Shown here piece after piece: positions 3,537 to 20,000 of a stretch of DNA of 20,000 nucleotides. This DNA is from an uncultured virus (IMG/VR IMGVR_UViG_3300037524_000956). Taxonomy: Duplodnaviria > Heunggongvirae > Uroviricota > Caudoviricetes. Location: IMG/VR virus record IMGVR_UViG_3300037524_000956. The stretch is one strand, 5' to 3'. Both the position numbers and the translations under genes were made by a program. Within the stretch, counting starts at the first letter, position 1; every line of letters begins with the position of its first letter. The notes under the pieces were generated by a model, which made no database searches, had not been told where the DNA came from, and saw only the letters and a program-made list of their open reading frames with translations.

Positions 3537-3539
3537 GGG

Positions 3540-3785: not shown

Positions 3786-3786
3786 G

Positions 3787-3993: not shown

Positions 3994-4007
3994 ACCAGCC
4001 TCCGCAA

Positions 4008-4029
4008 AGCGAGCCGGTGAAGGCTCGCT
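4008..4029 (-). terminator. Intergenic stem-loop AGCGAGCC-N6-GGCTCGCT followed by short T run (weak terminator or mRNA stabiliser)
   Basis: Perfect 8-bp stem directly after the 4037 stop codon. Confidence 0.5.
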
Positions 4030-4036
4030 GCGCCTA

Positions 4037-4600: not shown

Positions 4601-4625
4601 TGTTACTACTCCAAAATATTAAAGA

Positions 4626-5006
4626 TCATTCACCATTCAGAAATGCAAACCGCGCCAGTAAGTCAATTCGCTGCTGCAAATCCTGACGCGCCCACTCGCC
4701 CAAGTTCGGGCAATATTCACTGATGCACTGGTTTGAGATACCAGCGACTTTCAAACCATTCGGAAGAGTCGCTACTAATACTGCAAATCCATCGACAACA
4801 TAGCCAGTAACGGGAGCCAAACCGCGAGACGAACCATCTGGCTTGGAGCCGAGCCAAATATCTCGATTATGTCCCTCCAGCGGAATCCATGTGGGAGCCA
4901 CAATAACCGGACAGGGTTCGGCGCTGTAATCCGGGCCAAACGCGGCATCGCCACAGGCGATAGACAGCGCTGGAGCAAACAACAAACCGAGAAAAAGCTT
5001 TTTCAT
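4626..5006 (-). CDS. Putative exported protein/lipoprotein (126 aa)
   Basis: GAGG RBS. MKKLFLGLLFAPALSIA-C is a signal peptide with a possible lipobox Cys. Three further Cys residues. Confidence 0.7.
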   Translation of the reverse strand: MKKLFLGLLFAPALSIACGDAAFGPDYSAEPCPVIVAPTWIPLEGHNRDIWLGSKPDGSSRGLAPVTGYVVDGFAVLVATLPNGLKVAGISNQCISEYCPNLGEWARQDLQQRIDLLARFAFLNGE

Positions 5007-5015
5007 TTTATTGCC

Positions 5016-5240
5016 TCAAAATAGTAAATCGGAATCCAGACAGCCCAACGAATCCAGAATCAACTCTTCGTTTCGTGTCTCACACAAAATATAGGTATAG
5101 AAACAAAATCCGGGATTGGGCCGCAGGAGAAACCCCGGCAATAATCGCGCTCGTTCCGTCATCGCATAGCGCAAAATCCAGTCAAAGTGCGCACAATACA
5201 AGCGACGCTGTTGAATGTGCAAAGCCGTAGAGCGCAACAC
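5016..5240 (-). CDS. Hypothetical protein (74 aa)
   Basis: Fills the gap exactly between the flanking genes. GTG start abuts the upstream stop. Confidence 0.5.
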   Translation of the reverse strand: MLRSTALHIQQRRLYCAHFDWILRYAMTERARLLPGFLLRPNPGFCFYTYILCETRNEELILDSLGCLDSDLLF

Positions 5241-5507
5241 TTAAAACATCCCCCGACACTGCATCCCGACCGACTCAACCATTGTAGCCACCGCCATCCT
5301 GCCGCAGAGTGGATCCGGGGTCTTGATGCTCATCGTTGGGTTGCAGTGAAGCAGTGCGCACCCGGATAATAGGTGGATCAAAAGACTGAGGATCGCCACC
5401 AGAAACAGAAAGTGAATGGCTTTCTTGCACAGATTCGCTGCGTCCCACCAAATTGATCTCGGATATATCGGTTTCACGAGTACGGGTCTCCGGCGAACGA
5501 ATTTCAT
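5241..5507 (-). CDS. Putative lipoprotein (spanin-like position), overlapping the holin 3' extension
   Basis: KKAIHFLFLVAILSLLIHLLSG-C: basic residues, a hydrophobic stretch and an LSGC lipobox. Directly downstream of lysin/holin. Start uncertain. Confidence 0.55.
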   Translation of the reverse strand: MKFVRRRPVLVKPIYPRSIWWDAANLCKKAIHFLFLVAILSLLIHLLSGCALLHCNPTMSIKTPDPLCGRMAVATMVESVGMQCRGMF

Positions 5508-5664
5508 CACGTACAAACACTCCAATCAGGCCCGCCAGCGCCATCCCGGCTAGCACAATCGCTTCAATCTGATCAGGTCGTAAAGCGACACCGGAAACAG
5601 TTAACAGCCAAACCAATCCACGCCATGTAGAAGCTTCCCGCAAGCGATTGATTATCCAGTTCAC
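5275..5664 (-). CDS. Holin (two N-terminal TM segments) with long hydrophilic C-terminal tail
   Basis: MNWIINRLREASTWRGLVWLLT...IVLAGMALAGLIGVF resembles common small phage holins. GTGA overlap with the endolysin stop. Confidence 0.75.
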   Translation of the reverse strand: MNWIINRLREASTWRGLVWLLTVSGVALRPDQIEAIVLAGMALAGLIGVFVRDEIRSPETRTRETDISEINLVGRSESVQESHSLSVSGGDPQSFDPPIIRVRTASLQPNDEHQDPGSTLRQDGGGYNG

Positions 5665-6236
5665 AATTTATATTCCCCTACCAAAAAAGCATCCTTTTTA
5701 ACTCTTTGAAGTACGTACATTAATTCCTGCCGAGACACTAGCGCCTTATTCCCATGCACATCCTTATCATAATAAGACCTTCCAGTCCTATACGGAAGCG
5801 AAGCCCACTCCATTGATAAAGAATCAGCAAAAGACTCATCCCCACCGTGCATCCTCCCAACCAGCCATTTATCTAAACCCCGCCGGCGAAGCAGCTGCAG
5901 CCCAAGCATGTCTTGTGTACTTGCATCAAATACATCACTCATTTTCCACCAAGAATCAACAAGACCCTGTAACGTGGAGTTAATAATTTGATAGCGGCCT
6001 ACAGCACTGTATCCAATTCTTGAATTATGTTTTTCTTTATACCGTCTAATTGCTTCATCTTGCCAGTCCAGTACCTCAGCAACTATTAAAGTTGTTAAAG
6101 GCTTTAACGGGGGGTATACTTTAAACGCTTGCCAAACCACCACATCATAACCAGACTCAACACCCTGTGCTTCAGCAGCACTTTCACTCTCATGCCTGGC
6201 GATAAGATCAAGAAGTGGCTTGACTCGATTAATCAT
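5661..6236 (-). CDS. Endolysin, lambda-R-like lysozyme/lytic transglycosylase fold
   Basis: Motifs LLDLIARHES (catalytic Glu), YDVV, SAVGRYQI, F...QD, LSMEWASLP. Confidence 0.9.
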   Translation of the reverse strand: MINRVKPLLDLIARHESESAAEAQGVESGYDVVVWQAFKVYPPLKPLTTLIVAEVLDWQDEAIRRYKEKHNSRIGYSAVGRYQIINSTLQGLVDSWWKMSDVFDASTQDMLGLQLLRRRGLDKWLVGRMHGGDESFADSLSMEWASLPYRTGRSYYDKDVHGNKALVSRQELMYVLQRVKKDAFLVGEYKL

Positions 6237-6868
6237 GCAACAGTCTCAACAACACGTAAAGTAGCTGTACCGCTTGCAAAACTAGTAATCTTTAACCGAG
6301 CCAATGGCCAAGGAATAGTTAATGCTAAAGAATCACTGGCAGTTTTTGCTGTTAATGTTCCATCAGCCTTAGCCAAAATGGCTGTTTCAGCTTCAGCATT
6401 ACTTGTCATATTACGAGTTCCATACTGAACTTCATACGTTAAGCTCGCACCGGTGGAAAGCACCACAGAAACACCCTTTAACGGGTATTCATCATTAAGC
6501 ATAATCCATGGAGTTTCTAACGCATTACTATTACCTACAGTTACATTTGACCCAACTGCACCACTCGCTGCAATTCGTGTAACAGTCTTAAAACATGCCG
6601 TTGTCGTAACAGTAGAATTATTAGGTCCAGTAATGGCTTCTGAAATAGAGTTACCAAAAGTCGTAGTGCCGTATATTGTAAAAGTTAATGCAGATAAATT
6701 TCCAGCGCTATATATTGTTACTTTCTGTTGCTCACCAAACGTAGCAACTCCGCAGGCGGCAAGCGCACCTGCGATAATCAAGTTGCCTGCTTCAGCTAAT
6801 TGCTGTGCAGCGCAAACCCCATCGGCATCTAAAGCTGTAGGTGCAGCAGTATATGAAACAGTTGACAT
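6233..6868 (-). CDS. Virion structural protein (211 aa, Ala/Thr/Gly-rich beta protein)
   Basis: GAGGA RBS. Composition and position after the adaptor genes. Confidence 0.7.
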   Translation of the reverse strand: MSTVSYTAAPTALDADGVCAAQQLAEAGNLIIAGALAACGVATFGEQQKVTIYSAGNLSALTFTIYGTTTFGNSISEAITGPNNSTVTTTACFKTVTRIAASGAVGSNVTVGNSNALETPWIMLNDEYPLKGVSVVLSTGASLTYEVQYGTRNMTSNAEAETAILAKADGTLTAKTASDSLALTIPWPLARLKITSFASGTATLRVVETVA

Positions 6869-6883
6869 TACATGTTCCTCTTA

Positions 6884-7627
6884 TCAAGCGGCTGATTGTT
6901 CACTATTTTCCTGCTTTACACCTAAGGAATCAAAAACAAACCCCCTCGGCAGCTCCATCAATCTCACCTGCCGGCGAAGGCTTGTACGCAAATTGTTTTG
7001 CGCCTCAGCTATCCCTTGATACCATACCGTACTATAAAGTTGTGCCTTGCCTTGATTAAACGTGTCAATATCTGTTTGCATGTTTAATCGGAACAAAGTA
7101 CCAATTACTAACAATTCATGGTACGCTTCTGGAATTTGTGGATCAACACCAACAGGAGGTATTCCTGTAGGGAGTGCTAAACTTAACGAAGTTACATATC
7201 CTTCTATATCCACTTCACAATCAGCATTTGGATATGGCACAAATCGAACTTTGTCAGGATACATATCAGTAACTACAAACTTCGGTGTTCCTGTCGCTGC
7301 ACGCCAGTTAGCAAATCGCTGAGAATTCTCTTTACTACTAAATGTAAAATACCCAAAGTCTAATTCACTAACAGTAATCGGGCGTAATTGGTTTCCGTTA
7401 AGTATAACAGTCTTTACCACAAACATATTACTTGGTATTTCCAACCAGAGATCACCAGCCTCTACGTCATCTACTGTTGAGACATCATAAAGAGCCAGCG
7501 TGCTTTTAGCAAATTCTGATTCCGCCAGCGAAGCTTGCGCTAAAATAGTTGCATCAGAAACTAAATACGGCGTAGCTATGTCATCAAAGCGGACACGAAC
7601 GGCTGCAATTAATTCTGCCGCAGTCAT
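6884..7627 (-). CDS. Putative head-tail adaptor/tail tubular protein (paralogue 2)
   Basis: MTAAELI...R...D...PYLVSD, GTPKFV, FVPYP, PQIPEAYHELLV follow the pattern of podoviral adaptor-type proteins. Confidence 0.65.
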   Translation of the reverse strand: MTAAELIAAVRVRFDDIATPYLVSDATILAQASLAESEFAKSTLALYDVSTVDDVEAGDLWLEIPSNMFVVKTVILNGNQLRPITVSELDFGYFTFSSKENSQRFANWRAATGTPKFVVTDMYPDKVRFVPYPNADCEVDIEGYVTSLSLALPTGIPPVGVDPQIPEAYHELLVIGTLFRLNMQTDIDTFNQGKAQLYSTVWYQGIAEAQNNLRTSLRRQVRLMELPRGFVFDSLGVKQENSEQSAA

Positions 7628-8271
7628 AACATCGCCCTCGCACTACCCTTTGATTCTAAATACTCGTAGTTAAACGCCCTACGCATGGGCACTAAATTAA
7701 CTGTAAGATTAGCTTGCATCCGTTGTGTTTTCTTATTATCCGGCCATTCCAGCGAGGCAACCTTTAAAGCTTCCCAAACAACCAGCGAGTGAAACTTCTC
7801 ATCCCAAATCGGCTCATCGCCTAAACTATCAAAGCCCGCTGGCTTGTACCACACATCACCCCAAATCTGCCACGCTTCCGTAGGGTCAGGTTCTATCCGA
7901 TAATTACCATTTGGTAAAGATATGAAATAGCGTGGAGTACCTTGCATTTGCAAATTAACTTGTTCCTCTGCAACCCAGTTATCGTATTCCCAAAAGTACA
8001 TAGGAAATCTTGCCGATTCCCCTACTTTGTTACAATATACCGAGTCTTTAGAAATTTCTTTAACATTATAAACTTCATACTCAGCCTTCCCGGCTACCGT
8101 GGTTAATATCAAACCCCGGCTGTGGAAAAACTTCCATTGATCATACTCTATTTGAATACGCAAATACGCATCAGAAAGCCATTCGAAAATGGTTTGGGTA
8201 GAAACCATATAAGGCTCTACCTCATCGCCCATTGCAAGTCTTAACTTTGCAACCATTTCCGAAGCGGTCAT
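7624..8271 (-). CDS. Putative head-tail adaptor/tail tubular protein (paralogue 1)
   Basis: MTASEMV...R...D...PYMVST, TTVAGKAEY, GTPRYF, IEPDP, EPIWDEKFHSLVV. Confidence 0.65.
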   Translation of the reverse strand: MTASEMVAKLRLAMGDEVEPYMVSTQTIFEWLSDAYLRIQIEYDQWKFFHSRGLILTTVAGKAEYEVYNVKEISKDSVYCNKVGESARFPMYFWEYDNWVAEEQVNLQMQGTPRYFISLPNGNYRIEPDPTEAWQIWGDVWYKPAGFDSLGDEPIWDEKFHSLVVWEALKVASLEWPDNKKTQRMQANLTVNLVPMRRAFNYEYLESKGSARAML

Positions 8272-8281
8272 TGCAACACCT

Positions 8282-8740
8282 TTAAACTACTTGGTCTTTA
8301 ATAGAGTCATACCACGCTTGCCCCTTAGGATTCTTGTCCCGATAGTGGTGCGGGTATCTTAAAATATTGTACGAATTAGAGGTTTCAAACGTACTTCCAT
8401 CGGCGGCCTTGCGATAGCCAAATTGCCAGCTTTCCCGTTTAGCCCGCACGATAATCTCAAGGACAAAACGCGGAACAACTTGCCATTCGCCACGAAGCAT
8501 ATAATAGCTCTTGCCGTTTACGGAAATACTTACCAAACGAGTTGAATCGTTTTTGTCGTGCGAGGGTAAAATCATTACCTCAACCGGTTCAGCCATAAAA
8601 GCCAAATCATGAGCGTATGAGCTTAATGCCTCGTTTTCAACAATCTGAATAGGACTTGTAAAAGAGTCATCTTCAGGTTGTTCCATATAACCTGTTAAGA
8701 GGGGGTCAGTATTCTCGGATTTTTTAGTATATGTTGCCAT
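8282..8740 (-). CDS. Conserved phage protein of the capsid module (152 aa)
   Basis: LAFMAEPVEV...VSVNG-like SISVNG...RG....VPRFVLEII...RYP pattern, which I recall downstream of N4-gp56-type capsid genes. Confidence 0.7.
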   Translation of the reverse strand: MATYTKKSENTDPLLTGYMEQPEDDSFTSPIQIVENEALSSYAHDLAFMAEPVEVMILPSHDKNDSTRLVSISVNGKSYYMLRGEWQVVPRFVLEIIVRAKRESWQFGYRKAADGSTFETSNSYNILRYPHHYRDKNPKGQAWYDSIKDQVV

Positions 8741-8745
8741 TGTGT

Positions 8746-8770
8746 AAAAGCGGGAGGGTTACTCCCGCTT
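8746..8770 (-). terminator. Stem-loop AAGCGGGAG-TAACC-CTCCCGCTT followed by TT (T4 run including the stem base), just before the ATG at 8740
   Basis: Perfect 9-bp stem, 8748-8756 with 8762-8770. Confidence 0.55.
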
Positions 8771-8820
8771 CCTTTAAGGTTTGCGTAAATACGAAACAAT
8801 CGACCAGTTACGTATTGCCA

Positions 8821-9204
8821 TCAGCCCCACGCTTCAAAAAACGTATCGTCGTCATCGGTTTCAAGCGTCTTAACTGAAACATCAACAGTAAACCCAAGAC
8901 CGTCGCTGGTTAGTGAAATGCCCGCAGCCTCATAAGTACGAGTACCATTAGCAATCGTTAACAAAGACTTCGCATTCGCACCAGCATCCAATCCGTAAGT
9001 TGTAGTACCTGTAGCCGCACCTGGGTCAACGTAGTGAGTAGCCTCAATCTTATCAGTCAGATTAACAACACGAATAACTTGAGGTTTAAAACCCAATGTA
9101 ATCGTGAAATCCGCCGCAGTACGAACACCAGTACGGATGCCGTAAGCATAACGACGACCCTCTTGGAGCAGATCGTATTTTTCAGTATACAAGCCATTAG
9201 CCAT
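8821..9204 (-). CDS. Putative capsid decoration/minor structural protein (127 aa)
   Basis: AAGGTG RBS. ITLGFKPQVIRVVN motif and terminal FEAWG. Second gene after the MCP. Confidence 0.7.
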   Translation of the reverse strand: MANGLYTEKYDLLQEGRRYAYGIRTGVRTAADFTITLGFKPQVIRVVNLTDKIEATHYVDPGAATGTTTYGLDAGANAKSLLTIANGTRTYEAAGISLTSDGLGFTVDVSVKTLETDDDDTFFEAWG

Positions 9205-9215
9205 TTCAAATCACC

Positions 9216-9782
9216 TTATCCGTTAAGCAAGAGCTTAGTGTATTCAAGCCAGACGCTATAAATGTACGTCGCGTCTCCGTCGTTAGTACCGCCGAGGGTA
9301 AGTACGACAGACAGTCCGCCTTTAGTAAACAGCGCAGGTACACCACAGCTAAACGTCAGTTCTGAAACTGCCGCGACAATAGCAGTAGCTGCTGTTTGCT
9401 GAATATCCGAATTACCAACATCACCAGCCCCTGTTGGATAAACTTCACAATCCAGCGTAAGCTCATCATTATCGGCAGCTTTACCTACCAAAACATGAAC
9501 TTCCACAGGATAATTGGGATCCATGTTAATAGGAACTGGTACAGTAAAGCCTAATGCTTCGCCGGCAGAACAATTAACCGGAATGTTGATAACTGTTTCT
9601 TTATCAGCTAGTTGTGCATAACCAGCTACCGTAGTTGCTTGCTTAAGCAGTGCTGTGCCATCTTCTTGCGTAATGGCACCTAAAGGAACCGGAATAAAAC
9701 CCTTTTCACTTAAAAGAGCTTTAACTGCGTCGGCACCAGGGGCACTGATAAAGCGAGCCAATTCATTAAGACCACCGCTCAT
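9216..9782 (-). CDS. Putative capsid decoration/cement protein (188 aa, jelly-roll-like)
   Basis: GGAGGT RBS. Immediately after the MCP and beta-rich. Confidence 0.7.
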   Translation of the reverse strand: MSGGLNELARFISAPGADAVKALLSEKGFIPVPLGAITQEDGTALLKQATTVAGYAQLADKETVINIPVNCSAGEALGFTVPVPINMDPNYPVEVHVLVGKAADNDELTLDCEVYPTGAGDVGNSDIQQTAATAIVAAVSELTFSCGVPALFTKGGLSVVLTLGGTNDGDATYIYSVWLEYTKLLLNG

Positions 9783-9793
9783 TTATTACCTCC

Positions 9794-9830
9794 AAAAAGG
9801 CAGGACACAAGAGTTAGCATTGTGTCCTGC
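9794..9830 (-). terminator. Rho-independent terminator after the major capsid gene
   Basis: 11-bp stem GCAGGACACAA/TTGTGTCCTGC followed by CTTTTT on the - strand. Confidence 0.8.
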
Positions 9831-9846
9831 AAGTCCCCTACCACCA

Positions 9847-10923
9847 TTACGCTTCCGTTCCGACCCAGGCGATGGCCATCCAATCGTCGTTTAAGATCGC
9901 TTGTGCTTGCCAGGTCATTGCACTTACATACCCCCGCTGCCCGAGCGGATCTACCTTCGACTTATCCGACGGTGGGAAGTGATTAGCGTCAACACTATCA
10001 AACCCACGCAGCGGAACCTGCCCAAACGCATCACCACCACTATTACCACGGCCCATGATAATCAGCGGATAAACGTCAATGTTAGTGCCACCGTTGGACT
10101 TGGGAGTAAACCCAGCGACCGCCGCACCTACCAACGCCCCGACACCGGGGCGGTAAGTAAGAATAGGATTCACAATAATCCGAAAGCGACCAAGCGCACC
10201 AATTTCAAACTCAGGATCAAGCAACTGATTCGAGCCGTAATCCTGAACCTTAGTAAACCCAGGAATGTTCTCAAAGGTCTTTTCCATATCGGTATGACAG
10301 TACACCGGCCAAGAAGCATTAACCGATTGCATACCAAAATCAGGACCAGACTTTAACATCTTGTTGATGGTTGTAGCGTGCTTGCCAAGTAACGCCCGCG
10401 AAATGTTTTGGAACATAGCCTTAGTCGGCGGACCATTAACCGTACCAACTGTCGTACCCGTGCCACCGAAGAAATCATTAGTACAGGATTTTAGTTCCCC
10501 ATACACCATCATTTCCCGGCAAAGCGCGATACGAGTAGCCGCTTGATCTTCCATTTCCCGAGGGATAGTAACACCCTCTTCATGCAAGTACCGCAGCTTG
10601 TTAGAGTAACTATACAAGCAGCCAATTTCTTGCAACGTGGTGGAAGTTGTTGTCCACGCAATCGAGTCCGGCGAGGGAGTTACACCCTCTTGAATAACGT
10701 GCTTGGCGATAAAGGCAGTATCACCACCCGCAGCCATCCACTCGTTATCAACGCCGCCGTAAGGCAAAAACCGCATCCACTCAATAGTCTGCGATACGTT
10801 TTGCGGAAATGGCTCCATCGCGCCGAGCTTTGTAAGCATTTCCTTCGTTTGTGCTTTAGCAAGGATTCGCCCTTTATATTTTTCAAGGCGACCAACTTGC
10901 GTACTATAATTCATGCCAGCCAT
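9847..10923 (-). CDS. Major capsid protein, N4-gp56 family (HK97 fold)
   Basis: EGVTP, EIGALGRFRII, DVYPLII.G..AFG.V.L.G, DPLGQRGYV and ILNDDWMA are diagnostic. 358 aa, follows the scaffold gene. Confidence 0.93.
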   Translation of the reverse strand: MAGMNYSTQVGRLEKYKGRILAKAQTKEMLTKLGAMEPFPQNVSQTIEWMRFLPYGGVDNEWMAAGGDTAFIAKHVIQEGVTPSPDSIAWTTTSTTLQEIGCLYSYSNKLRYLHEEGVTIPREMEDQAATRIALCREMMVYGELKSCTNDFFGGTGTTVGTVNGPPTKAMFQNISRALLGKHATTINKMLKSGPDFGMQSVNASWPVYCHTDMEKTFENIPGFTKVQDYGSNQLLDPEFEIGALGRFRIIVNPILTYRPGVGALVGAAVAGFTPKSNGGTNIDVYPLIIMGRGNSGGDAFGQVPLRGFDSVDANHFPPSDKSKVDPLGQRGYVSAMTWQAQAILNDDWMAIAWVGTEA

Positions 10924-10925
10924 TG

Positions 10926-11705
10926 TTATCTACCCTCTGAGGCAACTTCTTCGAATGCAGCCAAGAACGCATCTTGTGAAGATTGCGCTCCAGCATCTCT
11001 AGTACGTCGAGATTGGCTTGCCGGGACTTGCCCCTGAGCCAGACGAGAAGTTTTATCACTAGCACTTTTCGTCTTTTCCTGTTTTCTACCCTGCTCCCAC
11101 GCCTCGAATTTTCTAAGCGCGTTGACGTATGGAGCTCCAAAGCTCAAAAGAGACTGTTGGGTTTGATACCCCTGTTGGGAATACCATTCGATAAAATCTT
11201 TGTGCCGCTGTCCCTCGGGCGCAAATTTCCCGTTTTGTACTGGAGGTATAATTTCCTCTAGCGCTTCGGGAGGGTAAACCGACAAAACTAACTGCTGCCC
11301 GTAAGCCTCAGTTATTTTGGATAGTGCAGGGTCGAGATAAGGCCGAAGAGCCGCTTCGTCTAAAGGTGAAGTTTGAATCGCCTCGGACAAAGCCGGGATA
11401 AGAATTTCAGCCAATTTCGGGTCGTAATCTTCTAAAACCTTTTTGAGTTTATCGGAATTAAAAGATGTTCTTGACCCTAAAGATTTCTCCAACCCAAGTA
11501 GCCGTTCCTGTAGCTGAGAAAGATTCCCATTAAACCTAGACTCCACACCACTAATATGTTCGGGGAAGTCTGATACACGTTGAAGCCTAGAATACACATC
11601 ATCTTCGGAGAGATCCCGTAAAAACGGAGTTACTTCCTCCGCCCCGGAATCGTCGGGAGTTGAGTTTACATCTTCGTATTCCAGTTCGTTGGACTGTTCA
11701 GTCAT
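10926..11705 (-). CDS. Capsid scaffolding protein
   Basis: Acidic N-terminus, coiled-coil, C-terminal DAFLAAF. Located between portal and MCP. Confidence 0.75.
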   Translation of the reverse strand: MTEQSNELEYEDVNSTPDDSGAEEVTPFLRDLSEDDVYSRLQRVSDFPEHISGVESRFNGNLSQLQERLLGLEKSLGSRTSFNSDKLKKVLEDYDPKLAEILIPALSEAIQTSPLDEAALRPYLDPALSKITEAYGQQLVLSVYPPEALEEIIPPVQNGKFAPEGQRHKDFIEWYSQQGYQTQQSLLSFGAPYVNALRKFEAWEQGRKQEKTKSASDKTSRLAQGQVPASQSRRTRDAGAQSSQDAFLAAFEEVASEGR

Positions 11706-11902
11706 TTTGTATTTTCCGTTAATTGTTGTATCAGGGTTTTTAACTCTGCGTAGTGGCCCCGGAGAGCCTCTGTAGTTGCGTGGTCAGTACCTGGTACAGC
11801 AATACGTTCTATGACGAGATTAGCACGTTCTACTAAAAATTGCAAAAAACGCATAGGGTCAATATACCAAGTACCATACACTTGCACTAACGCATCTTTC
11901 AT
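11702..11902 (-). CDS. Small head-module protein (66 aa)
   Basis: ATGA-coupled on both sides. T..LRG...ELK.L helix typical of the small gene after the portal. Confidence 0.7.
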   Translation of the reverse strand: MKDALVQVYGTWYIDPMRFLQFLVERANLVIERIAVPGTDHATTEALRGHYAELKTLIQQLTENTK

Positions 11903-14016
11903 TGTAACCCCAATGTGTTAAGCGCTGCTGCAACATCTATCTCAGGTGTCTCAGCCTTCGCCGGGGTAAGTGGTTTCGCGCCGGGAAGTTCTTCGGCACG
12001 TTTTTGCTCAACGTCCATGTCCTTTTGGGCTATCGCTGTATCCGATTTAATTTGTGCCTCAGCTTGCGCTTGCTGTAGCGACAGCCGTTTAAACTGCGCC
12101 TCGAGTGCCAATTTAAGCGTATCAACCTCTTTCCTAAGATCCGCTTTATACACTTCAGTTTGAGCTTCAATTTGTGCCGCCGTCACCTTTGGATCAGGTT
12201 GTTGCTCCGCCGCCTCCAGCCGTTGCCGTTCCTCATCAGTAAGCGCCAGGGATTCAATATCAATTTGGAACCCCTCAAGGTAAACCTGCATCCACTTCCG
12301 GGGCGAAATCCCATAAACTGGCTGAAGAACCTGTTGGGCAATTTGCAACAGGGCTTGCTGCTGTAACTCCTTCACGATAAGTGTTGTAGAGCCTAAAGGC
12401 TCTACCACCGCATCTCCTTGCGCCTCCTCCGGTCCGTATAACTGTACCCACTCGTAAAAGTTTTCCAGCAACGGTTTACAAGTTTTATCATCCCATTCCT
12501 TAACAATAAGCCGAAGATTTGTCGTGGAATTGTTCATTAACTGCTGTGACACTCCAACAGCGTCAGTAACAGCTTGTCCCTGCAATAGCAAGCTTAACCC
12601 GGTGGTGTCCTCTGCCATTTTTAACCAGTATTGAATAACTGGCATAATATCGTTTAAGTAATTAGGAAACTCTAAAAACGCCATTGCATTTTTAGCTTCC
12701 GTCATCGCGTCGATTCCTGGCAAGCCGGATTTCACCCGCCACCGCTTGTATGGCCGAAGTTTGGTGTCCTCACCGTCAATGGGTTCTATAAGGCCGTCCA
12801 TTTCCAGCACCTGTGGTCCGACAGAATACCCCATATTATCCATCAAGGCACGAACAGACGCAGTAAGCCCTCGTTGTGGAGTCTCCATTTGCTCTGGGAT
12901 TCCGATTCCCGCCCAAGAGTTATCTCTTGGCTCCCAGCAAACCAGATGATACGGGAACTTTTCAGTTTCCAGCGGAAACGGGGCGATTTTAATAATCCGA
13001 TCATTAAGCATCGTTATTACGCCAAAACCCAGCGAACGCTCCTCGTTTTTATCCTTCCACTCAATCACCCCGGTTCTGACCCAAAGGGCGTAAGGCTTTT
13101 TGGAGTCTTTTCTTTTAGCCATATTATCATCTTGCGGCCCCTCATCCAACGCCAGTTTAATAGCATCGGCGAAGTAATTGGGGTCTTTCGCCATGTCCTG
13201 CAACTGCCGCTTTGTTACCTCAGGTATTTTCTCAAAGAAGAACTTACCATTTTGAATATCAGTACCACAATCCGGGTCAGGGTAACAGTTTTCCACCTTA
13301 ATACACTCAATTTGCGGAGTGTAAAATAGCATAGTTTCTAGTTCTTTTAAAAGCATTTCCGCCGTGAATTCATCCGTACTAGCTGGGATGAACTCCAGGA
13401 TTTTTGTAGTGTCACTACTTAGCCGGCGTTCCTTCGGAAACGGGCCTTTAATCACCCCAGTGCCAACTATCCCCGATTCTACCAACTGCCGCCTTACTAC
13501 GCCGGCCCACCCAGACTCCTTAAGCCAATCTTTAATAATCGTCTCAGCGACTTGTATCGCGGCAGCGGCAGAATTCTCATCCTGTATCTTGCGAGCAATG
13601 TCTGGCAGAAAAACAGGAATTTGCTGCATAATATTTGGGTATTTTGCAAGAATCCCGAAAACCGTTTGCAAGTCACTTACAGGTGTGGCTTTTAACGCCC
13701 AGGGCATCTTTCCCGTAGGAAGCAAAATATCTGCAACCCGAGCTGTGCCAGCGTTTGTATAAGGGCGAGTGATGTTGACCAGGACGGTAGAGCGGTCGTT
13801 TTCGAGTCTTTCACGGAGGGGAGTTACTGAGGAATTTAATGTCTCACCCTTTTCATACTCGGTTGTTGTTCGGTTAAGAGCATCGACACCCTTGTATTGG
13901 TTCCGGGCGGACTGCCAAATACGGTCAAGCTCCTTTCTCCCGGAAATGGCTCGCTTGCGCTCGTCGCAAAGGGTTGCAACTAAGCACTCAAGACTTTCGT
14001 TCTCAGGCAATTCCAT
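11899..14016 (-). CDS. Portal protein (705 aa)
   Basis: GIVGTGVIKGP, NCYPDP, WAGIGIP, MAEDTTG and a long Gln-rich C-terminal barrel helix (P22/N4-like portal). Start set at ATG 14016 (AGGGGG RBS). Confidence 0.92.
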   Translation of the reverse strand: MELPENESLECLVATLCDERKRAISGRKELDRIWQSARNQYKGVDALNRTTTEYEKGETLNSSVTPLRERLENDRSTVLVNITRPYTNAGTARVADILLPTGKMPWALKATPVSDLQTVFGILAKYPNIMQQIPVFLPDIARKIQDENSAAAAIQVAETIIKDWLKESGWAGVVRRQLVESGIVGTGVIKGPFPKERRLSSDTTKILEFIPASTDEFTAEMLLKELETMLFYTPQIECIKVENCYPDPDCGTDIQNGKFFFEKIPEVTKRQLQDMAKDPNYFADAIKLALDEGPQDDNMAKRKDSKKPYALWVRTGVIEWKDKNEERSLGFGVITMLNDRIIKIAPFPLETEKFPYHLVCWEPRDNSWAGIGIPEQMETPQRGLTASVRALMDNMGYSVGPQVLEMDGLIEPIDGEDTKLRPYKRWRVKSGLPGIDAMTEAKNAMAFLEFPNYLNDIMPVIQYWLKMAEDTTGLSLLLQGQAVTDAVGVSQQLMNNSTTNLRLIVKEWDDKTCKPLLENFYEWVQLYGPEEAQGDAVVEPLGSTTLIVKELQQQALLQIAQQVLQPVYGISPRKWMQVYLEGFQIDIESLALTDEERQRLEAAEQQPDPKVTAAQIEAQTEVYKADLRKEVDTLKLALEAQFKRLSLQQAQAEAQIKSDTAIAQKDMDVEQKRAEELPGAKPLTPAKAETPEIDVAAALNTLGLQ

Positions 14017-14158
14017 AAAACCCCCTAATAAACTCCACAAAAAATCGAATAAGTTTTCCCGATAACAAAAGTATCGCGGTGCCTATATAAACTAAAGCAA
14101 CAAGCATAAACCAGTCAGCTATTACTTTATTACGACCTGTTAATCTATAACGAATCAT
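14003..14158 (-). CDS. Small single-pass membrane protein (51 aa, [51 protein letters not shown])
   Basis: Translated by hand (below the track cutoff). ATGA overlap with the 14155 stop. Fills the gap up to the portal. Confidence 0.55.
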   Translation of the reverse strand: MIRYRLTGRNKVIADWFMLVALVYIGTAILLLSGKLIRFFVEFIRGFYGIA

Positions 14159-14373
14159 GCAGCCTCCCACATTGGCTCAATCGCTTCCGGGGTAGGTCCG
14201 ATCTTGGTTATTTCCTCCTTCGCCGGCGGAGGGGTTAATTCTTTAAGCATTTCAGGCTCAAGTAACGCATATAACCTTTTAACTTCTTTCGCAAGTGTAA
14301 AGCAAATGTTTTCACCATTGCAATTTATCGGGGCACATGTTTCTGCTCTCTGTAAGGCTTCTTTAATGTTCAT
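14155..14373 (-). CDS. Hypothetical protein (72 aa)
   Basis: ATGA-coupled to the dfrB-like gene. Contains an LAKEVKRL helix. Confidence 0.65.
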
Positions 14374-14597
14374 TCAATTCTCTTTAAGGCTGTCGCCGGG
14401 TAAATTTGTACAGAACCAGTTTCAGAAGAACTCTCAACAGCGTATCCTTCGGGGGTTAAATTTGTAGAGTACCAGCCGACTATTTTACCCTGCCAGCAGG
14501 AACCCTTAATCTTTTTAACAACATCTCCGTATTTAAAAGTTGGGTGACTAATAGTAGGCCAGGGAAATAAACAGTAAGTTACTGAAAAGTCATTCAT
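14370..14597 (-). CDS. dfrB: DfrB-family (R67-type, type II) dihydrofolate reductase homologue
   Basis: [27 protein letters not shown]....[11 protein letters not shown] matches the R67 DHFR core without gaps. K32, W38 and the VQIY active-site motif are retained. About 38/56 identities against the R67 sequence as recalled from memory. Confidence 0.92.
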
Positions 14598-14598
14598 T

Positions 14599-16212
14599 TT
14601 AATATCCCATTACCGCGTCTAAGGGTCGCCAACCAGCCTTTGTACTCTTAAATTCCATCCCAGTATTTACTCCTTTTATCGGCCTCGCCCGCGTGGGTAC
14701 AAACGTAAGCACAAACGCATCCCAGTGATCAGGGCTTCGCGAGGCGTTTTTCTGCGACCGAGTACGGCCTAAAGCGAATCTCGCCCGGTAATCGTCTTTG
14801 GACTCAATTAATAAAAGCCCACCTTTGTACTCGAATTGAATTGCGGTAGCTTGTGCTACAAACGTAGGGTTGTCCGGGAGGGAAATTTCCAAATCTTCAA
14901 TATAATCCACCGCCTGCGAGTGCAAGTACGCCCGCAAGTTATAATTCTTCCCATCTGAAAGTTTCGCCCCGGTATGCACAGCCAACGTGATAGAGCTAAA
15001 TGGGCCGTATTTTAACTGATCAGCGGCGGAGCCACCAGGCCCGTCCCGCTCAATCGCAATGAGTTCCACTGGGCCGGTGTTTAATAGCTTTTTAACCTTG
15101 TACTCGATAATCGTAGCAAGTTGAACTCCGTCGAGTTTCCTATACGTTTCAGGTTCGATAGACAACCGACCCCGCCTCGCCCAAATTACAATCTCATCAT
15201 TACCCATTCCGGCGGCGTCTACCCCGATCCGCCAGGGAGTCGTGTCAGGTTGCTCGATAGACCCTGGCCGGCGGGAGATTGCTGCCTGGATTTTGTTGTG
15301 ATCTACTAAAGTGTTTGAAACAGACGCCGCATAATTCCGATCTACCTGGGAGGCCAGCGTAGTGGGTAACAACTCAAGCTTTTGCTTTTTATACCAGGGT
15401 TCTTCCTCAGGCTCAAGATCAAGGTTTTGCCGTTTTCTTGGATCCTCTTTCCAGTCGAATATAAAAATTTGTTCTTTAGGCAAAAACTGTCGCAGTATAT
15501 AAAACAGGTTCCCAATCCCATTCACCGTTGAGATATAAATCCGGCAGTTTGTCGTAGCCGATAGGGAAGACTCCGCCATATCTGGATGTTCTAAATGCGC
15601 GAACTCATCCACAAAGTATAAACCCGCCCGGCCACCACGCCCAATCTCATCACCGATTTCACCCTTAATCACCGAGTTGTTTAACAAATTCGGAACGGTT
15701 CCCCACTTCCGCCCCGCAGTGTGTTCAGAGTGGAGGAACTCCGCCGGAAGGTTGTCGATAAAGGCTCGTACTTTCCAAAAGATAGAATCCGGGTCGTGCT
15801 CGCCGTTATCTACAAGCTCTTTCTTACGGCTTCCAAACCCAACGACTGAGGAAGGATAAAACAGCCAAACGCAAACTGCACACGCAGCGCATAACCAGGT
15901 AAAGCCTACGTCACGAGATTTTTCCCCAAGTCCCCGACGGGAGTTAATGTAAGAATCGTATACCCAATTAACGAATTCCACTTGTCTTGGGAAGAGAATA
16001 AACGGAAAGTACTTGTCTTTCGGCTCACGAGGATCAAAAGTCATTCCCCAGTCGTTTATGAAATCCGCCCAGTGGGTTGAATAATAGTCCATTAATTTAC
16101 TTAACGCGGCGGGATTCTTTCTCAGCCGGGAAAGAGCATCCAATCGGAACTCAAAGACACTTTTGTAATCCGGATTTACCCAGTTGAATTTGGACGGATC
16201 AAACTCATTCAT
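14599..16212 (-). CDS. terL: Terminase large subunit
   Basis: ATPase motifs [22 protein letters not shown] (Walker B), STVNG. Nuclease motifs [12 protein letters not shown] and SPDHWDA. Confidence 0.95.
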
Positions 16213-16801
16213 CTTCCCATCCCTCTGTTATGATGGTTAAAGCCCGCCGGGTGGGGGGTTGTTGCACAGGCTTTTTAATCACCGTCGGCTCCTGCTCTTC
16301 CCCAGGGATATACCCTCGCCGCTTTAACAACCTTACGTATGTTTCGATTGGATCTTCGTTGTCAAACTCAGCATCGGAGCGAGCTGCACCGTGTACGTTC
16401 GTTTGTAATAGGATTTCCTTTCGATCATTGAAGAACTGTACCGCCGGCGCACCTACAGGCTCGTCAGGGTCGAAATCGGGGATGTTCTTAAGCATGAAAA
16501 TCGGCCCGGTGGCATTGCCATATCCAATTAACTCCTCATACCCGGAGGCAATAGCAATCATACACCTGCTTATCACGTAACGAAGTTCAGGAATACGCTG
16601 GCCGAGCCGCAAAAGTGACGTGGGGCCGGGGAGGCCGACGGAGAGTGCATACCCGGTTACTGTCGGTCGGTTGCCCGTGTCAGCGCACTCGTTGAAGTAT
16701 ATGTTGGAGCGGGCGATAAAATCCTCCACCCCCGCCGGAGGACTTACGGTGGCCGGATTGCGCTTCCATTCGGGGACGAAGGTGGCGGGGGCGGAAGACA
16801 T
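16205..16801 (-). CDS. terS: Terminase small subunit (P22 gp3-like DNA-packaging protein)
   Basis: YF......RPTVTGYALSVG and TGPIFMLKN motifs. Overlaps the terL start. Confidence 0.8.
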   Translation of the reverse strand: MSSAPATFVPEWKRNPATVSPPAGVEDFIARSNIYFNECADTGNRPTVTGYALSVGLPGPTSLLRLGQRIPELRYVISRCMIAIASGYEELIGYGNATGPIFMLKNIPDFDPDEPVGAPAVQFFNDRKEILLQTNVHGAARSDAEFDNEDPIETYVRLLKRRGYIPGEEQEPTVIKKPVQQPPTRRALTIITEGWEDE

Positions 16802-16803
16802 TT

Positions 16804-17025
16804 TTATTTAGCTTCCCACCGCTTTCCGCTCATTCCACATTTAGCGAAGAACTTACGTTTTCGTTCATCGTGACAATCCGTTCCACGTCCAGTCACCTTA
16901 GACGCTAAAGCATAAGGATCATTACCGTTCACCACCGGATGAATGCAGTGTAAGCTCCATGAACTATTTTCATCAGGTTCACTATACTTACACTCTCTAC
17001 ATAAAGCAGGAAATGGTTTATTCAT
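16804..17025 (-). CDS. Small Cys-rich (probable Zn-binding) phage protein
   Basis: CRECKY...C.HP...C..ER...CG..G..WE. AAGGA RBS. Confidence 0.75.
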   Translation of the reverse strand: MNKPFPALCRECKYSEPDENSSWSLHCIHPVVNGNDPYALASKVTGRGTDCHDERKRKFFAKCGMSGKRWEAK

Positions 17026-17189
17026 GTTATTTCCTTATTCCACCATCTAATATTACTCTTAATACTCGGCCCCATTGCCTCAATCATACGACAAAGCATT
17101 TCGGCCAAGATAAAATCTGGCATATCTATCTTATTTTCAATACTATGCTTATTGATAAGTTGTGTTAATTCTTTCTTGAAATTTTCCAT
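17022..17189 (-). CDS. Hypothetical phage protein (55 aa, MENFKKELTQLINKHSIEN..DMPDFILA)
   Basis: Start reassigned to ATG 17189 (AAGGG RBS). ATGA-coupled to the next gene. Confidence 0.7.
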   Translation of the reverse strand: MENFKKELTQLINKHSIENKIDMPDFILAEMLCRMIEAMGPSIKSNIRWWNKEIT

Positions 17190-17241
17190 TATTTTACCCT
17201 TTGTTGTCACTAAAGACCCCCGCTGGCCCGTTGGGCCAACC

Positions 17242-17769
17242 CTACACCCACAAGTGCCATATCGCCCCCGACTGCACTTTATCAAACTCATCCACAATCA
17301 AATCCCTTTTTACTTTTGAGGTAAGGTGCCTTACCACCGTGACGGGAAAGCAATCAAGCCCGAACAATTTAAGATACTCAAGGTACTTGTTAATTTGCAG
17401 GCTTGCATCCACGTAAGTTAATTTTACCTCGATTAAAACACCCCCGCCAGGTCGCTCCACAACGAAATCCGGCTGAAAGTATTTAACATCTTTCCCACAA
17501 ATATACACAAACCACTGGTGATCTAAAAGATTCCAGCCCGCCCGCGAACAGATTTTATCAAGCACCCTTCCCACTTTCTTTTCATACGTGCTGCCACGGG
17601 CTTTAGCCCCGGTTAAGGCACCTTTTAAAGCCCACGCCGGCGGAGTGGCTTGCTCCACGCGAGGGAAACTCCTCAGGGCGGCGAGCGCCGGGGCGCGGCG
17701 GGCCTCCGAAGCACTCGGCACGAATCCGGGGCGGGAGTGGCTGAGGCTGTGGGAGGGGCTGGCGTTCAT
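17242..17769 (-). CDS. PD-(D/E)XK nuclease (resolvase/restriction-like fold)
   Basis: RGSTYEKKV...QPDF...LIEVK catalytic pattern. Start uncertain: the track's TTG at 17820 coincides with a TTGACA box. Confidence 0.8.
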   Translation of the reverse strand: MNASPSHSLSHSRPGFVPSASEARRAPALAALRSFPRVEQATPPAWALKGALTGAKARGSTYEKKVGRVLDKICSRAGWNLLDHQWFVYICGKDVKYFQPDFVVERPGGGVLIEVKLTYVDASLQINKYLEYLKLFGLDCFPVTVVRHLTSKVKRDLIVDEFDKVQSGAIWHLWV

Positions 17770-17831
17770 TTTGGGGCTGTCATGTGTGGCTGTGGTAGCG
17801 GGGCGTATGGGTTGTGTCAATTCTTGTCCCG

Positions 17832-17860
17832 AGTGTACCGCGTTTTCTGGTGGTTGTCAA
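17832..17860 (-). promoter_or_regulatory. Leftward sigma70-type promoter for the packaging/structural operon
   Basis: TTGACA (17860-17855), 17 nt spacer, TACACT (17837-17832). Confidence 0.7.
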
Positions 17861-18219
17861 TGTTTTTAGCGGGTTACTGCTAGATTATGTATGTACAATG
17901 TACATTTGATTTATTGGCTCCAGTTAGTTTTGACCTGTAGGTCTATAATATAAACACACTCACGAAAACAAAGGGGTGGGGGTCTAAAGAGGAACCAAGA
18001 GTCGGAAACGATAGGAAGCACCTGGTGCGAGCGAGCCAGGAATACATGGCGCTAGTGGGCGATGGTTGGCATGGTGTTTGCAACGCGGGCGCGTGCGCGG
18101 GTACGTTATACATGCGCGTTGCGGGTGTAGGTGTGTACATACCATTGGCTGTGTTATCCTGCATACGAGCCTTGCGTATTGATGAAACGGTTTAATTGTT
18201 TTGTATGTATGAAAACCTG

Positions 18220-18248
18220 TTGACAAATGAAAACCCCCGTCGTATGAT
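18220..18248 (+). promoter_or_regulatory. Rightward sigma70-type promoter
   Basis: TTGACA (18220-18225), 17 nt spacer, TATGAT (18243-18248), AT-rich upstream. Confidence 0.85.
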
Positions 18249-18306
18249 TCGTTCATGGTCATTGAGACCATGAAACGAACCGATTTTTTACCACTTGGAG
18301 AGTAAA

Positions 18307-18693
18307 ATGCGAACCGTAACGATTGAATTACCTGAAGCGTATGAAATTACTAGCGCCAAAGACGCGCCAAGTGAATATCGCACGGTCAAAACCGCAAGCT
18401 GGACCGCTGAAATCATACTCAACGCGGTTGAGTTTGGGCTGTCGGAGAGCATAGGCAACACATGGTCCGTCAGCAAGAAAGATGTTGAGACGCTCAAAGC
18501 ACGCCACGAGGCGATTGAACGTGGTGATTGGGCCAGAAAGGGAGCAAAAAGCAGCATTAGCGACGCAAAACTGGCTGAGCGTGTTGCCAAAATTGACATT
18601 GCCAAGCTTTTGGCGATGTTGTCGCCGGAGCAGCATAAGGCAATTTTGGCTGCCGGCGGTGATATTTCCGTAGTTACCACCAAACAAAGTTAA
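18307..18693 (+). CDS. Hypothetical (probably early) protein, 128 aa
   Basis: GGAG RBS (18297-18300) and ATG 18307, directly after the promoter. Confidence 0.85.
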   Translation: MRTVTIELPEAYEITSAKDAPSEYRTVKTASWTAEIILNAVEFGLSESIGNTWSVSKKDVETLKARHEAIERGDWARKGAKSSISDAKLAERVAKIDIAKLLAMLSPEQHKAILAAGGDISVVTTKQS

Positions 18694-18730
18694 TTCAACC
18701 GCGCCCGCAAGGGCGCACGAGGAGAAAACC

Positions 18731-18898
18731 ATGTATATCCTAGTCAATAATGGTAAGTTTTTTGCGGGCAAAGAGAATAACAAGCTAATATGGACGGATC
18801 TATCCATGCTAAAATGTTATCCATGCCAGGTTATTCTGTATCCATCGCAAGATAGCCTTGATGAAGACAGATTTACTACCCCCAAACCTGCCAGGTGA
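18731..18898 (+). CDS. Hypothetical protein (55 aa, MYILVNNGKFFAGKENNKLIWTD...)
   Basis: Translated by hand. GAGGAG RBS, and it ends just before the terminator. Confidence 0.7.
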   Translation: MYILVNNGKFFAGKENNKLIWTDLSMLKCYPCQVILYPSQDSLDEDRFTTPKPAR

Positions 18899-18923
18899 AT
18901 TGATTAAACCCGAATAATCCATT

Positions 18924-18953
18924 AAAAACCCGTCGCGAGGCGGGTTTTTTATT
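18924..18953 (+). terminator. Rho-independent terminator (potentially bidirectional)
   Basis: AAAAACCCGTC-GCGA-GGCGGGTTTTTT: GC stem, GNRA loop, T6 tract, preceded by A5. Confidence 0.9.
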
Positions 18954-18995
18954 GCCTGCGTATTACTAGAATAAACCATTAAACCGATTTCTAAT

Positions 18996-19043
18996 TGTTT
19001 CACGGGAAATATTTACCATTTTCTAGTTGTTTCCCGTGAAACA
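18996..19043. promoter_or_regulatory. Two parS-like 16-mers: TGTTTCACGGGAAATA (18996-19011) and TGTTTCCCGTGAAACA (19028-19043)
   Basis: 2 and 1 mismatches respectively to the chromosomal parS consensus TGTTTCACGTGAAACA. Confidence 0.65.
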
Positions 19044-19198
19044 TTCATAAAAAAACCACTAAATAACATATTGACAATATACATTATACCAATAATGGTA
19101 TACTGTTGAAAAATAAAATAAAAAAAAAACATGGCATATTGTCAAAATAAAAATTCATGATTATTTTAACGTAACATATTGAAAAATAAAACAATTTA

Positions 19199-19560
19199 AA
19201 ATTCTCCACCAGCACTCCAGCAGCACTCCAGCTTCACCCCACCATATAGCATCAAACTCCATCAAATCCACCAGCCAATTTTACAAAACACAAAACACAA
19301 AAAACAACGCAAACACCCATATATAAGAAATACGATTCTGACCCCCTGAGCGATTCAGGCAATACGATTCCCTTATATAAAAAAAAAAAATTATGTAAGA
19401 TATATACATTAGGCACTCTACAAGCAATATGTTTACCTACATCCCGCAATCGTATTTACGTTATGCGTTGTGCGCAAAAAATCTTTGGTGGATTTCGTGG
19501 AGTTAGGTAGATTATGCTGGAGGGTTGAAAGAGGGTTGGAAGAGTGCTTGTGAAGAATTT
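19199..19560. repeat. Large degenerate inverted repeat around an AT-rich core (candidate replication origin)
   Basis: Arms 19199-19273 and 19486-19560 align without gaps at about 52/75 by hand count, including two 17/19 blocks. Inner pairs are ACAACGCA and AAATACGATT. A12 tract at the centre. Confidence 0.7.
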
Positions 19561-19741
19561 GGCGTTGGTGGCACGTTCGCCCCGGAACCATGTATCATAT
19601 CGCCGTAAACCCCAAACGCCGAAAATCGCCGTTTTGCCCGGTTCCTGCCCCATTCCACACCACACAACCGCCGGAATTCGCCGCCGGTTGCCCGCAACCC
19701 GCCCGCAAACCATTAAACCAAAATGACCCCATAAAAATAAA

Positions 19742-19769
19742 TTGACAATACATTGCATTGTCATATAAT
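19742..19769 (+). promoter_or_regulatory. Perfect-consensus sigma70 promoter with overlapping palindromic operator
   Basis: TTGACA, 16 nt spacer, TATAAT, with an A-rich UP element. Palindrome TGACAAT-N7-ATTGTCA at 19743-19763. Confidence 0.85.
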
Positions 19770-19846
19770 ACCCGTATCGCCCGCATACCGCGAGCGTTTA
19801 ACCTCGCGAGTCAATCCTCAACACCAGCGAATTTTGGCATCGCCTT

Positions 19847-20000
19847 ATGCGCAACGCCGACGGTTCGCCCGCCAGGTGCCGCAAGAGCGGAAAGATGCAG
19901 ACTTGGAAAACCCGCCCGAAAGACTTTTCCCAACCTGTCAAGCACGGGCTTAAAGAATCATTCCGGCTAACCCCAGAAAACGCCCAAGACTGGGTTGTTG
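19847..20000 (+). CDS. Partial hypothetical phage protein (MRNADGSPARCRKSGKMQTWKTRPKDFSQPVKHGLKESF...), runs off the window
   Basis: Frame is open from 19802 to the window end, downstream of the strong promoter. RNADG..RC...GK..TWKTRP..F..PVKHGL resembles an uncharacterised phage family I recall. Start uncertain. Confidence 0.6.
   Translation, partial: MRNADGSPARCRKSGKMQTWKTRPKDFSQPVKHGLKESFRLTPENAQDWVV

Follow-up and report, generated by a model that had tools for sequence, protein, structure and literature searches.

A DfrB-type dihydrofolate reductase gene between terL and portal of an environmental phage: a probable auxiliary gene of thymidylate metabolism

Type B dihydrofolate reductases (DHFRs), the family of the clinical enzyme R67 (DfrB1), are also encoded by phages. 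According to the available text of one survey, 20 of 386 DfrB homologues are viral, 19 of them in Caudoviricetes; viral DfrB is linked to the thymidylate synthase ThyA in genomes without the FolA-type enzyme, and it is proposed to supply DHFR to such phages (PMC12486381). The same text makes the general point that a phage's own DHFR recycles the dihydrofolate (DHF) produced by phage thymidylate synthase, reports that tetramer formation correlates with activity, and describes the motif VQIY as exclusive to its cluster I, which contains DfrB1-10; the cluster-I homologues that it lists, 38-55% identical to DfrB1, are active tetramers that confer trimethoprim resistance, and non-catalytic viral homologues occur in phages with ThyX (PMC12486381). 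The DfrB-H4 protein of a Vibrio phage also gave trimethoprim resistance in E. coli (PMC9835603) and, in the accessible portions of two further reports, dfrB2-like genes (67% identity) are present in four freshwater viral contigs (PMC7265639) and eight dfrB candidates are counted in lytic phages (PMC12466917). The gene considered here, dfrB, encodes a 75-amino-acid (aa) protein of this type; it lies on a 20,000-nucleotide (nt) stretch of DNA (the window) from the uncultured virus IMGVR_UViG_3300037524_000956 (Caudoviricetes), between the genes for the large terminase subunit (terL) and the portal protein. A first-pass annotation, made from the letters of the window and their open reading frames (ORFs), had implied that such a gene is a novelty; phage DfrB homologues, their ThyA link and their measured activity are already known, having been annotated, published and partly assayed (PMC12486381 and PMC7265639, as far as their available text goes, and PMC9835603).

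The dfrB gene probably encodes a competent homotetrameric DHFR, an auxiliary nucleotide-metabolism enzyme that completes the thymidylate cycle of the phage, and its position is probably just where the gene landed. In this cycle, dCTP deaminase would supply the deoxyuridine nucleotide pool, and ThyA would convert methylene-tetrahydrofolate to DHF while making dTMP. DfrB would then reduce DHF to tetrahydrofolate with NADPH, sustaining the thymidylate cycle during phage DNA synthesis.

Membership of the family is plain. The dfrB product matches the Pfam profile DHFR_2 (PF06442) with 92.8 bits (E 1.2e-26, profile positions 20-77 of 78; the gathering score is 25), phrog_31682 with E 1.8e-18, and the solved R67 DHFR (PDB 1vie) with E 5.7e-22 in a phmmer search. 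The alignment to R67 is gapless, pairing residues 17-74 of the product with 4-61 of 1vie_A, and 39 of the 58 residues are identical (~67% over the core); by alignment, the SH3-like core can thus be laid onto solved R67 without insertions or deletions. The numbering used here takes the first residue of 1vie_A to be R67 residue 17, an assumption that fits its 62-residue length, and product residue n then corresponds to R67 residue n+3. On this numbering the product retains R67 K32 (K29), W38 (W35), W45 (W42) and S65-V66-Q67-I68-Y69 (S62-Y66), and VQIY forms the active-site beta-4 strand (V63-Q64-I65-Y66), as the first-pass annotation had said of the family call and of K32, W38 and V66-Y69. In an alignment of 84 homologues, K29, W35 and S62-V63-Q64-I65-Y66 are invariant; the position of R67 H62 is occupied by E59, glutamate also being the consensus there. 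The NCBIfam model trim_DfrB (NF000331) gives the product 96.4 bits, under the 137-bit cut-off for clinical alleles, so the protein is a member of the DfrB family and not a named resistance allele. This agrees with its earlier description as a non-clinical relative, as do 536 near-length homologues in the protein database (E <=1e-5). The ORF listing of the window gives dfrB an ATG start and places it on the minus strand, which had previously been left unstated. Judged by its sequence, dfrB is a genuine DfrB/R67-type DHFR gene.

NADPH-dependent, trimethoprim-insensitive reduction of DHF would be expected by analogy with the active homologues at 38-55% identity described in the available text of PMC12486381. 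Self-association is suggested by a four-copy structure prediction of the product, which gave an ipSAE of 0.61 (best of three controls, 0.01), a value that does not fix the stoichiometry. Contact agreement was at least 56% and partner pLDDT at least 78, with predicted interface residues 10-14, 16-17, 40-48, 53, 55, 60-61, 63 and 65. In calibration, 20 of 30 solved homomers and 1 of 23 monomers attained the mark for self-association. Since the R67 tetramer is among the solved structures, the model may have remembered it, and the four-copy pass is a likeness, not proof.

The window belongs to a larger genome. Virus record G007 (54,209 bp), found by an exact 59-base match to the window, overlaps it at both of its ends (window 1-6453, 99.985% identical, and 18851-20000, 100%), so that G007 together with window positions 6454-18850 makes up one genome of ~66.6 kb; the longest contig on record for the cluster of the DfrB protein, at 66,824 bp, agrees with this size. 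PHROG scans covered 62 G007 proteins and 30 window proteins. On the G007 strand opposite the structural genes lie genes for a helicase, an exonuclease, a thymidylate synthase (phrog_160, E 6.3e-45), a Sak4-like protein and a DNA methyltransferase, together with a split DNA polymerase, a primase and a dCTP deaminase (phrog_1663); tail genes are also present in G007. The thyA gene (G007 44326-45078; PF00303, E 2.8e-40) is the only one of its family in the genome. The best PDB matches of its product are all thymidylate synthases, and alignment with such enzymes brings its catalytic Cys-His and its RS.D...N and H.Y motifs into register with theirs; among cultured relatives the best is a protein of a cyanophage (42% identity), and its best phage matches are named thymidylate synthase. 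FolA-type DHFR_1 (PF00186), Thy1/ThyX (PF02511) and a second DHFR_2 have no match in G007 or among the Pfam-scanned ORFs of the window, and PF02511 has none in G001 either. The dfrB gene is the only recognisable DHFR in a genome with its own dCTP deaminase and ThyA homologue, and a functional link between DfrB and ThyA appears likely. The first-pass annotation had placed dfrB far from nucleotide-metabolism genes. This apparent isolation arises from the 20-kb limit of the window; the same genome carries the ThyA-family gene, ~13.4 kb from dfrB, and the dCTP deaminase.

Within the same phage group, DfrB is found at a second place. Relative G004, whose terL is 82% identical, has no DfrB at terL and encodes a 68-aa DfrB ~750 nt downstream of its ThyA homologue. 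Its early region is syntenic with that of G007 (exonuclease 65%, ThyA 64% and the following ATPase 67% identical), and the orthologous place in G007 spans only ~480 nt and holds no DfrB. In a DfrB tree of 144 rows and 80 columns, made by a quick method and with 5 of 141 branches at 95 or above, the SH-aLRT support is 86 for the group of the window, 91-92 for the G004 subgroup and 85 for a joint 19-row group; the tree is too poorly resolved to tell relocation from a separate gain of the two positions.

Several observations weigh against a role of dfrB in completing a thymidylate cycle. First, dfrB and thyA are not physically linked, lying on opposite strands, and dfrB is part of an operon of structural genes; with late expression of this operon, DNA replication would already be under way when the enzyme is made. 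Second, DfrB is dispensable in this phage group, because G002 (complete) has ThyA and lacks DfrB and FolA, and G003 (97% complete) lacks ThyA, DfrB and FolA alike; host FolA may suffice. Third, a search of the flanks (+/-6 kb) of 79 other viral DfrB loci by tblastn with three phage ThyA proteins, which would miss a divergent or more distant ThyA, found ThyA at 2 of the 79, both in the group of this phage. Finally, the ThyA homologue is itself divergent. It falls under every NCBIfam equivalog cut-off, and where an aligned thymidylate synthase has YGAQWRSW it has YGEQFRSF, with both Trp residues of QWRSW replaced by Phe. A dUMP hydroxymethylase releases tetrahydrofolate, so that no DHFR is needed. 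Enzymes of this kind are homologues of thymidylate synthase, according to the available text of PMC8989533, and from its sequence the ThyA-family protein could be one of them instead.

The interval between terL and the portal gene was surveyed in related phages, as the first-pass annotation had suggested. A scan of IMG/VR with TerL yielded 25 loci, 22 of which cover the end of terL as well as the start of portal; L005 (100% identical) is the window's own phage, leaving 21 others whose TerL is 57-93% and whose portal is 51-94% identical to that of the window. DfrB is present in the interval in none of these 21. The 20 intervals examined (L012 and L015 were omitted as duplicates of L011 and L014) range from 7 to 1197 nt, 9 being at most 119 nt long. 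Their content varies. An orf72 homologue (orf72 being the ORF that follows dfrB) stands alone in L021, and a different 66-72-aa ORF precedes an orf72 homologue in L006 and L007; other slots hold small hydrophobic ORFs (in L008, L009, L014, L023 and L024) or other unknown ORFs. In L014 (3603-4187) and L024 (4078-4695) the slot carries a stand-alone 194-205-aa TSCPD-domain protein with a Cys-rich tail, whose sequence is similar to the C-terminal part of B12-dependent ribonucleotide reductase (NF006417, E 4e-15). These two were the only Pfam matches among 13 slot proteins of relatives, the other 11 having none. A 216-aa slot protein of L022 looked methyltransferase-like by eye and was dropped, having no Pfam or NCBIfam match. 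At the nucleotide level, homology extends up to the terL stop, breaks completely across the slot and resumes at the start of orf72. These varied contents and lengths, and the break between terL stop and orf72, mark the terL-portal interval of this phage group as a hypervariable slot for cargo, with dfrB in one exchangeable position.

One could go further and regard the interval as a dedicated swap site for nucleotide-metabolism genes (DfrB here, the protein resembling B12-dependent ribonucleotide reductase in L014 and L024), with the DfrB function sitting either in the early thyA module, as in G004, or in the structural operon, and with the late copy selected for late folate recycling and dTTP supply during packaging. 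This elaboration has a limited chance of being right.

Outside this phage, the order terL-dfrB-orf72 is seen only in its close variants. In metagenome contig L116, terL is 98.9%, DfrB 96% and orf72 84.7% identical to the window, and a soil-metagenome contig that is 90-95% alike spans positions 14047-14797; the samples matching the locus carry wetland and soil metagenome labels. Compared with L116, the window differs at 118 of 1305 nt in terL (109 synonymous and 5 non-synonymous codons), at 8 of 228 nt in dfrB (5 and 3) and at 35 of 219 nt in orf72 (18 and 11). This uneven nucleotide divergence (9%, 3.5% and 16%, respectively) suggests mosaic recombination around the slot. That dfrB is less diverged than its flanks hints at recent exchange, with counts too small to show selection.

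These comparisons bear on whether dfrB might be a dispensable passenger, that is, recently acquired cargo, possibly an active enzyme, which is of little if any use to the phage and is retained for a short time only. Its absence from the slot in all 21 other relatives and its complete absence from some complete ones would fit such a gene, as would its younger or more recently exchanged appearance and a ratio of synonymous to non-synonymous changes which, on small counts, gives no clear sign of purifying selection. However, all of the family-invariant residues are intact, at least three sequence variants, taken from different metagenomes, preserve the arrangement, and a full-length homologue (P0002) with 80% identity exists on a 30.6-kb contig, which was not among the 8 loci of the metagenome scan that yielded L116; moreover, the gene sits in a genome with ThyA and no other DHFR found. 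A mere passenger is thus unlikely, and an auxiliary DHFR of the thymidylate cycle remains the preferred reading.

The junctions of dfrB are tight. A single spacer base separates the terL stop (14599-14601) from the dfrB ATG (14595-14597), and the dfrB stop overlaps the ATG of orf72 as ATGA, bearing out what the first-pass annotation had said of the start 1 nt after terL and of coupling to the next gene. In such an arrangement dfrB would be read through from terL and coupled to the following ORF, and its co-transcription with the structural genes would presumably be late. The site is between terL and the portal gene, as had been stated, with orf72 and a possible small membrane ORF of 51 aa also lying before the latter. 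Exact-matching contigs come from three metatranscriptome libraries; two bridge the dfrB/orf72 junction and one the terL/dfrB junction, while most of terL and portal is uncovered. These contigs are compatible with read-through transcription and are not proof of it, since RNA libraries can contain DNA.

The one-base spacer and the ATGA overlap leave no room for an attC site or an insertion sequence (IS), and no integron cassette context (attC, intI) is seen at dfrB, as judged from the junctions and without a dedicated attC or integron finder. Likewise, no promoter-like site is present on the minus strand between 17140 and 11500, in a scan that is overall at chance (11 sites in total, against 8.9 +/- 2.8 expected); a terminator scan is also not above chance. 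The earlier statements that no attC, IS or own promoter is visible nearby agree with these results. No integrase or excisionase family match was found among the 62 G007 and 30 window proteins scanned, and the source phage is probably virulent. These features make it highly improbable that dfrB is a resistance gene through which the phage benefits its host by delivering trimethoprim resistance. Close homologues do give high trimethoprim resistance in E. coli (PMC9835603; PMC12486381, in its available text), but the locus has neither an integron or IS context nor a promoter of its own, its genome has no integrase match among the proteins scanned, and the matching samples carry wetland and soil labels.

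DfrB genes are widespread in other viruses. In a tblastn search, DfrB-like genes appeared in 26 GenBank phage records, several of them annotated as R67 DHFR, and the three GenBank contexts that were opened are early or replication regions; an IMG/VR scan found 186 stretches that encode a DfrB relative. Crude ORF calling at the 79 other viral DfrB loci, with the closest ORF taken to the left and to the right of each gene, gave 127 distinct neighbouring proteins, none of which has a PHROG match in the category 'head and packaging'. The words terminase and portal are also absent from the main text of PMC12486381. The position within a packaging module is unusual and confined to this phage and its close variants.

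The first-pass annotation had taken this position as a hint at a role other than folate supply, such as nucleic-acid or nucleotide binding by the pore. On this reading the SH3-like tetramer would have a packaging-linked, non-enzymatic function, its pore acting on such ligands in concert with terminase or portal. The tight junctions with terL and the downstream ORFs and the RNA-library contigs across both gene junctions are what such a role would lead one to expect. It is nevertheless very improbable. In relatives, the slot contains either nothing or unrelated genes, G004 keeps its DfrB by thyA, packaging and head proteins are missing among the 127 neighbours, and DfrB is the sole DHFR found in a genome with genes for a ThyA-family enzyme and dCTP deaminase; in addition, the available text of the DfrB papers cited here describes no DfrB with such a role.

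A different set of neighbours recurs at the other viral loci. At 24 of the 79, genes for GTP cyclohydrolase I (phrog_2197), a QueD-like (phrog_2389) or a QueE-like (phrog_2076) protein, a set belonging to the 7-deazaguanine and pterin pathways, adjoin a DfrB gene of 60-72 aa (L045-L050, L057-L059, L063, L065, L069, L072, L074-L076, L082, L084, L087, L095, L096, L098, L099 and L104; DfrB is near position 6000 in most). The DfrBs of these loci form one 22-row group in the quick tree (SH-aLRT 94). Judged by titles and abstract openings, none of the papers listed by a literature search is obviously on a phage link between DfrB and deazaguanine, and the main text of PMC12486381 mentions neither cyclohydrolase nor QueD.

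Such neighbours raise the question of whether the pore of the present protein might reduce a different dihydropterin, or bind a nucleotide-like ligand, in a pathway other than that of thymidylate; the non-catalytic viral homologues of ThyX phages in the available text of PMC12486381 point the same way. For this phage the idea is improbable, because no FolE, QueD or QueE match was found among the 62 G007 and 30 window proteins scanned, the FolE/Que-linked DfrBs form a tree group separate from its own, and the product has the canonical VQIY of the DHF-reducing cluster I. Recycling of folate for thymidylate synthesis thus remains the favoured function.

The features of the locus are collected in the table.

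Table. Features in the dfrB region of the window
Feature	Coordinates	Strand	Evidence
dfrB, 75-aa type B (R67-like) dihydrofolate reductase	14370..14597	-	DHFR_2, R67, trim_DfrB, phrog_31682 matches
Large terminase subunit TerL, 537 aa	14599..16212	-	phrog_2, E 6.6e-20; tblastn to annotated phage TerL
198-aa ORF upstream of terL, presumed small terminase	16205..16801	-	position only
orf72, 72-aa Cys-containing ORF	14155..14373	-	ATGA overlap with dfrB
Possible 51-aa single-pass membrane ORF	14003..14158	-	ATGA overlap with orf72; overlaps portal start
Portal protein (SU10-type)	11899..14040	-	SU10_portal, E 6.6e-20; phrog_332, phrog_1216
Best promoter-like site upstream of dfrB operon, TTGACA-17-TACACT	17832..17860	-	consensus match only; scan at chance

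All genes from ~17.8 kb to the left end of the window are on the minus strand. Their order is the presumed small terminase, TerL, dfrB, orf72, the possible 51-aa membrane ORF, the SU10-type portal, a scaffold-like ORF and the major head protein, followed by two SU10-type adaptor-like proteins and further ORFs, one of which has an endolysin (phrog_90) match. The 198-aa ORF has no Pfam or PHROG family match, and its position is conserved in relatives (38-84% identity). There is likewise no Pfam or PHROG match for orf72, whose homologues (42-54% identity) stand directly before the portal gene in L006, L007, L021 and L024, all without dfrB. Together with its homologues (L006:2911-3129, L007:2704-2922, L021:725-946), orf72 shares a conserved EP.Y..P.P.WE-like tail directly before portal; the otherwise unrelated ORF at L023:1531-1944 ends with the same tail, and that at L009:2462-2728 has a weaker version, which points to a short conserved peptide or sequence element at the 5' border of portal. 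In the 51-aa ORF, a stretch beginning VIADW is retained in variant L116 despite nucleotide changes. The portal ORF as listed starts at a TTG (14040); since MQLPENESL opens the portals of relatives, translation probably begins instead with the ATG at 14016.

At the other side of the structural genes, window positions 17860-20000 contain few convincing ORFs and a change of sign in GC skew, and the promoter-like site of the table faces another on the plus strand (18220-18248, 11/12 matches). This part is probably a divergent control region between the structural and replication modules. There are no tRNAs in the window, and a megablast search of window positions 11000-17500 against cultured phages gave no match. 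Outside the window, G007 contains a single ORF of 3,155 aa (24578-34045; L125:4578-14045) that matches only PHROGs of unknown function and, over one stretch, an 'endolysin'-labelled one. In size it recalls giant virion proteins such as the virion RNA polymerase of N4-type phages.

With this locus, the known reservoir of type B DHFRs gains another environmental phage, in keeping with the published idea that the enzymes had metabolic rather than resistance functions at their origin. The direct risk for the spread of resistance looks low, given the lack of an integrase match and of a mobile-element context and the wetland and soil sample labels. Two details go beyond routine annotation, namely that related phages carry DfrB at two places, by thyA or between terL and portal, and that small cargo genes are exchanged at the terL-portal gap in this group. 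The presumed function of DfrB is unaffected by either, and the position between packaging genes is unusual but explicable.

Among described systems, the DHFR of T4-type phages is a counterpart in function. Their frd gene, of the FolA family, pairs with thymidylate synthase; the proposed job is the same as here, but the fold is unrelated (a FolA monomer versus an SH3-like DfrB tetramer). The dfrB2-like genes of freshwater viral contigs are, like this one, environmental phage DfrBs with ~67% identity to a clinical allele; their function and context are not analysed in the available text of PMC7265639. DfrB-H4 (Vibrio phage) and DfrB-H3 (Pseudomonas phage) are likewise phage-encoded DfrB domains, but they belong to longer, multi-domain proteins from early regions near DNA methyltransferases (PMC9835603), whereas the present protein is a stand-alone one of 75 aa; Pseudomonas phage PS-1 has a 167-aa DfrB-type protein adjoining a methyltransferase. 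With the clinical enzyme DfrB1/R67 (1vie), the dfrB product has in common the Pfam family, the gapless 58-residue core, K32, W38, W45 and S65-Y69, and a predicted self-association. It differs in having E in place of H62, in missing the trim_DfrB cut-off, in residing in a phage structural operon instead of an integron cassette, and in its N-terminus, which carries a WPxxSHPTF motif (WPxxTHxTF in the closest environmental homologues). Like the viral ThyA-linked DfrBs of the available text of PMC12486381, it comes with a ThyA-family gene, with no FolA found, and is a predicted tetramer; unlike them, it occupies the terL-portal interval, 13.4 kb from thyA and on the opposite strand.

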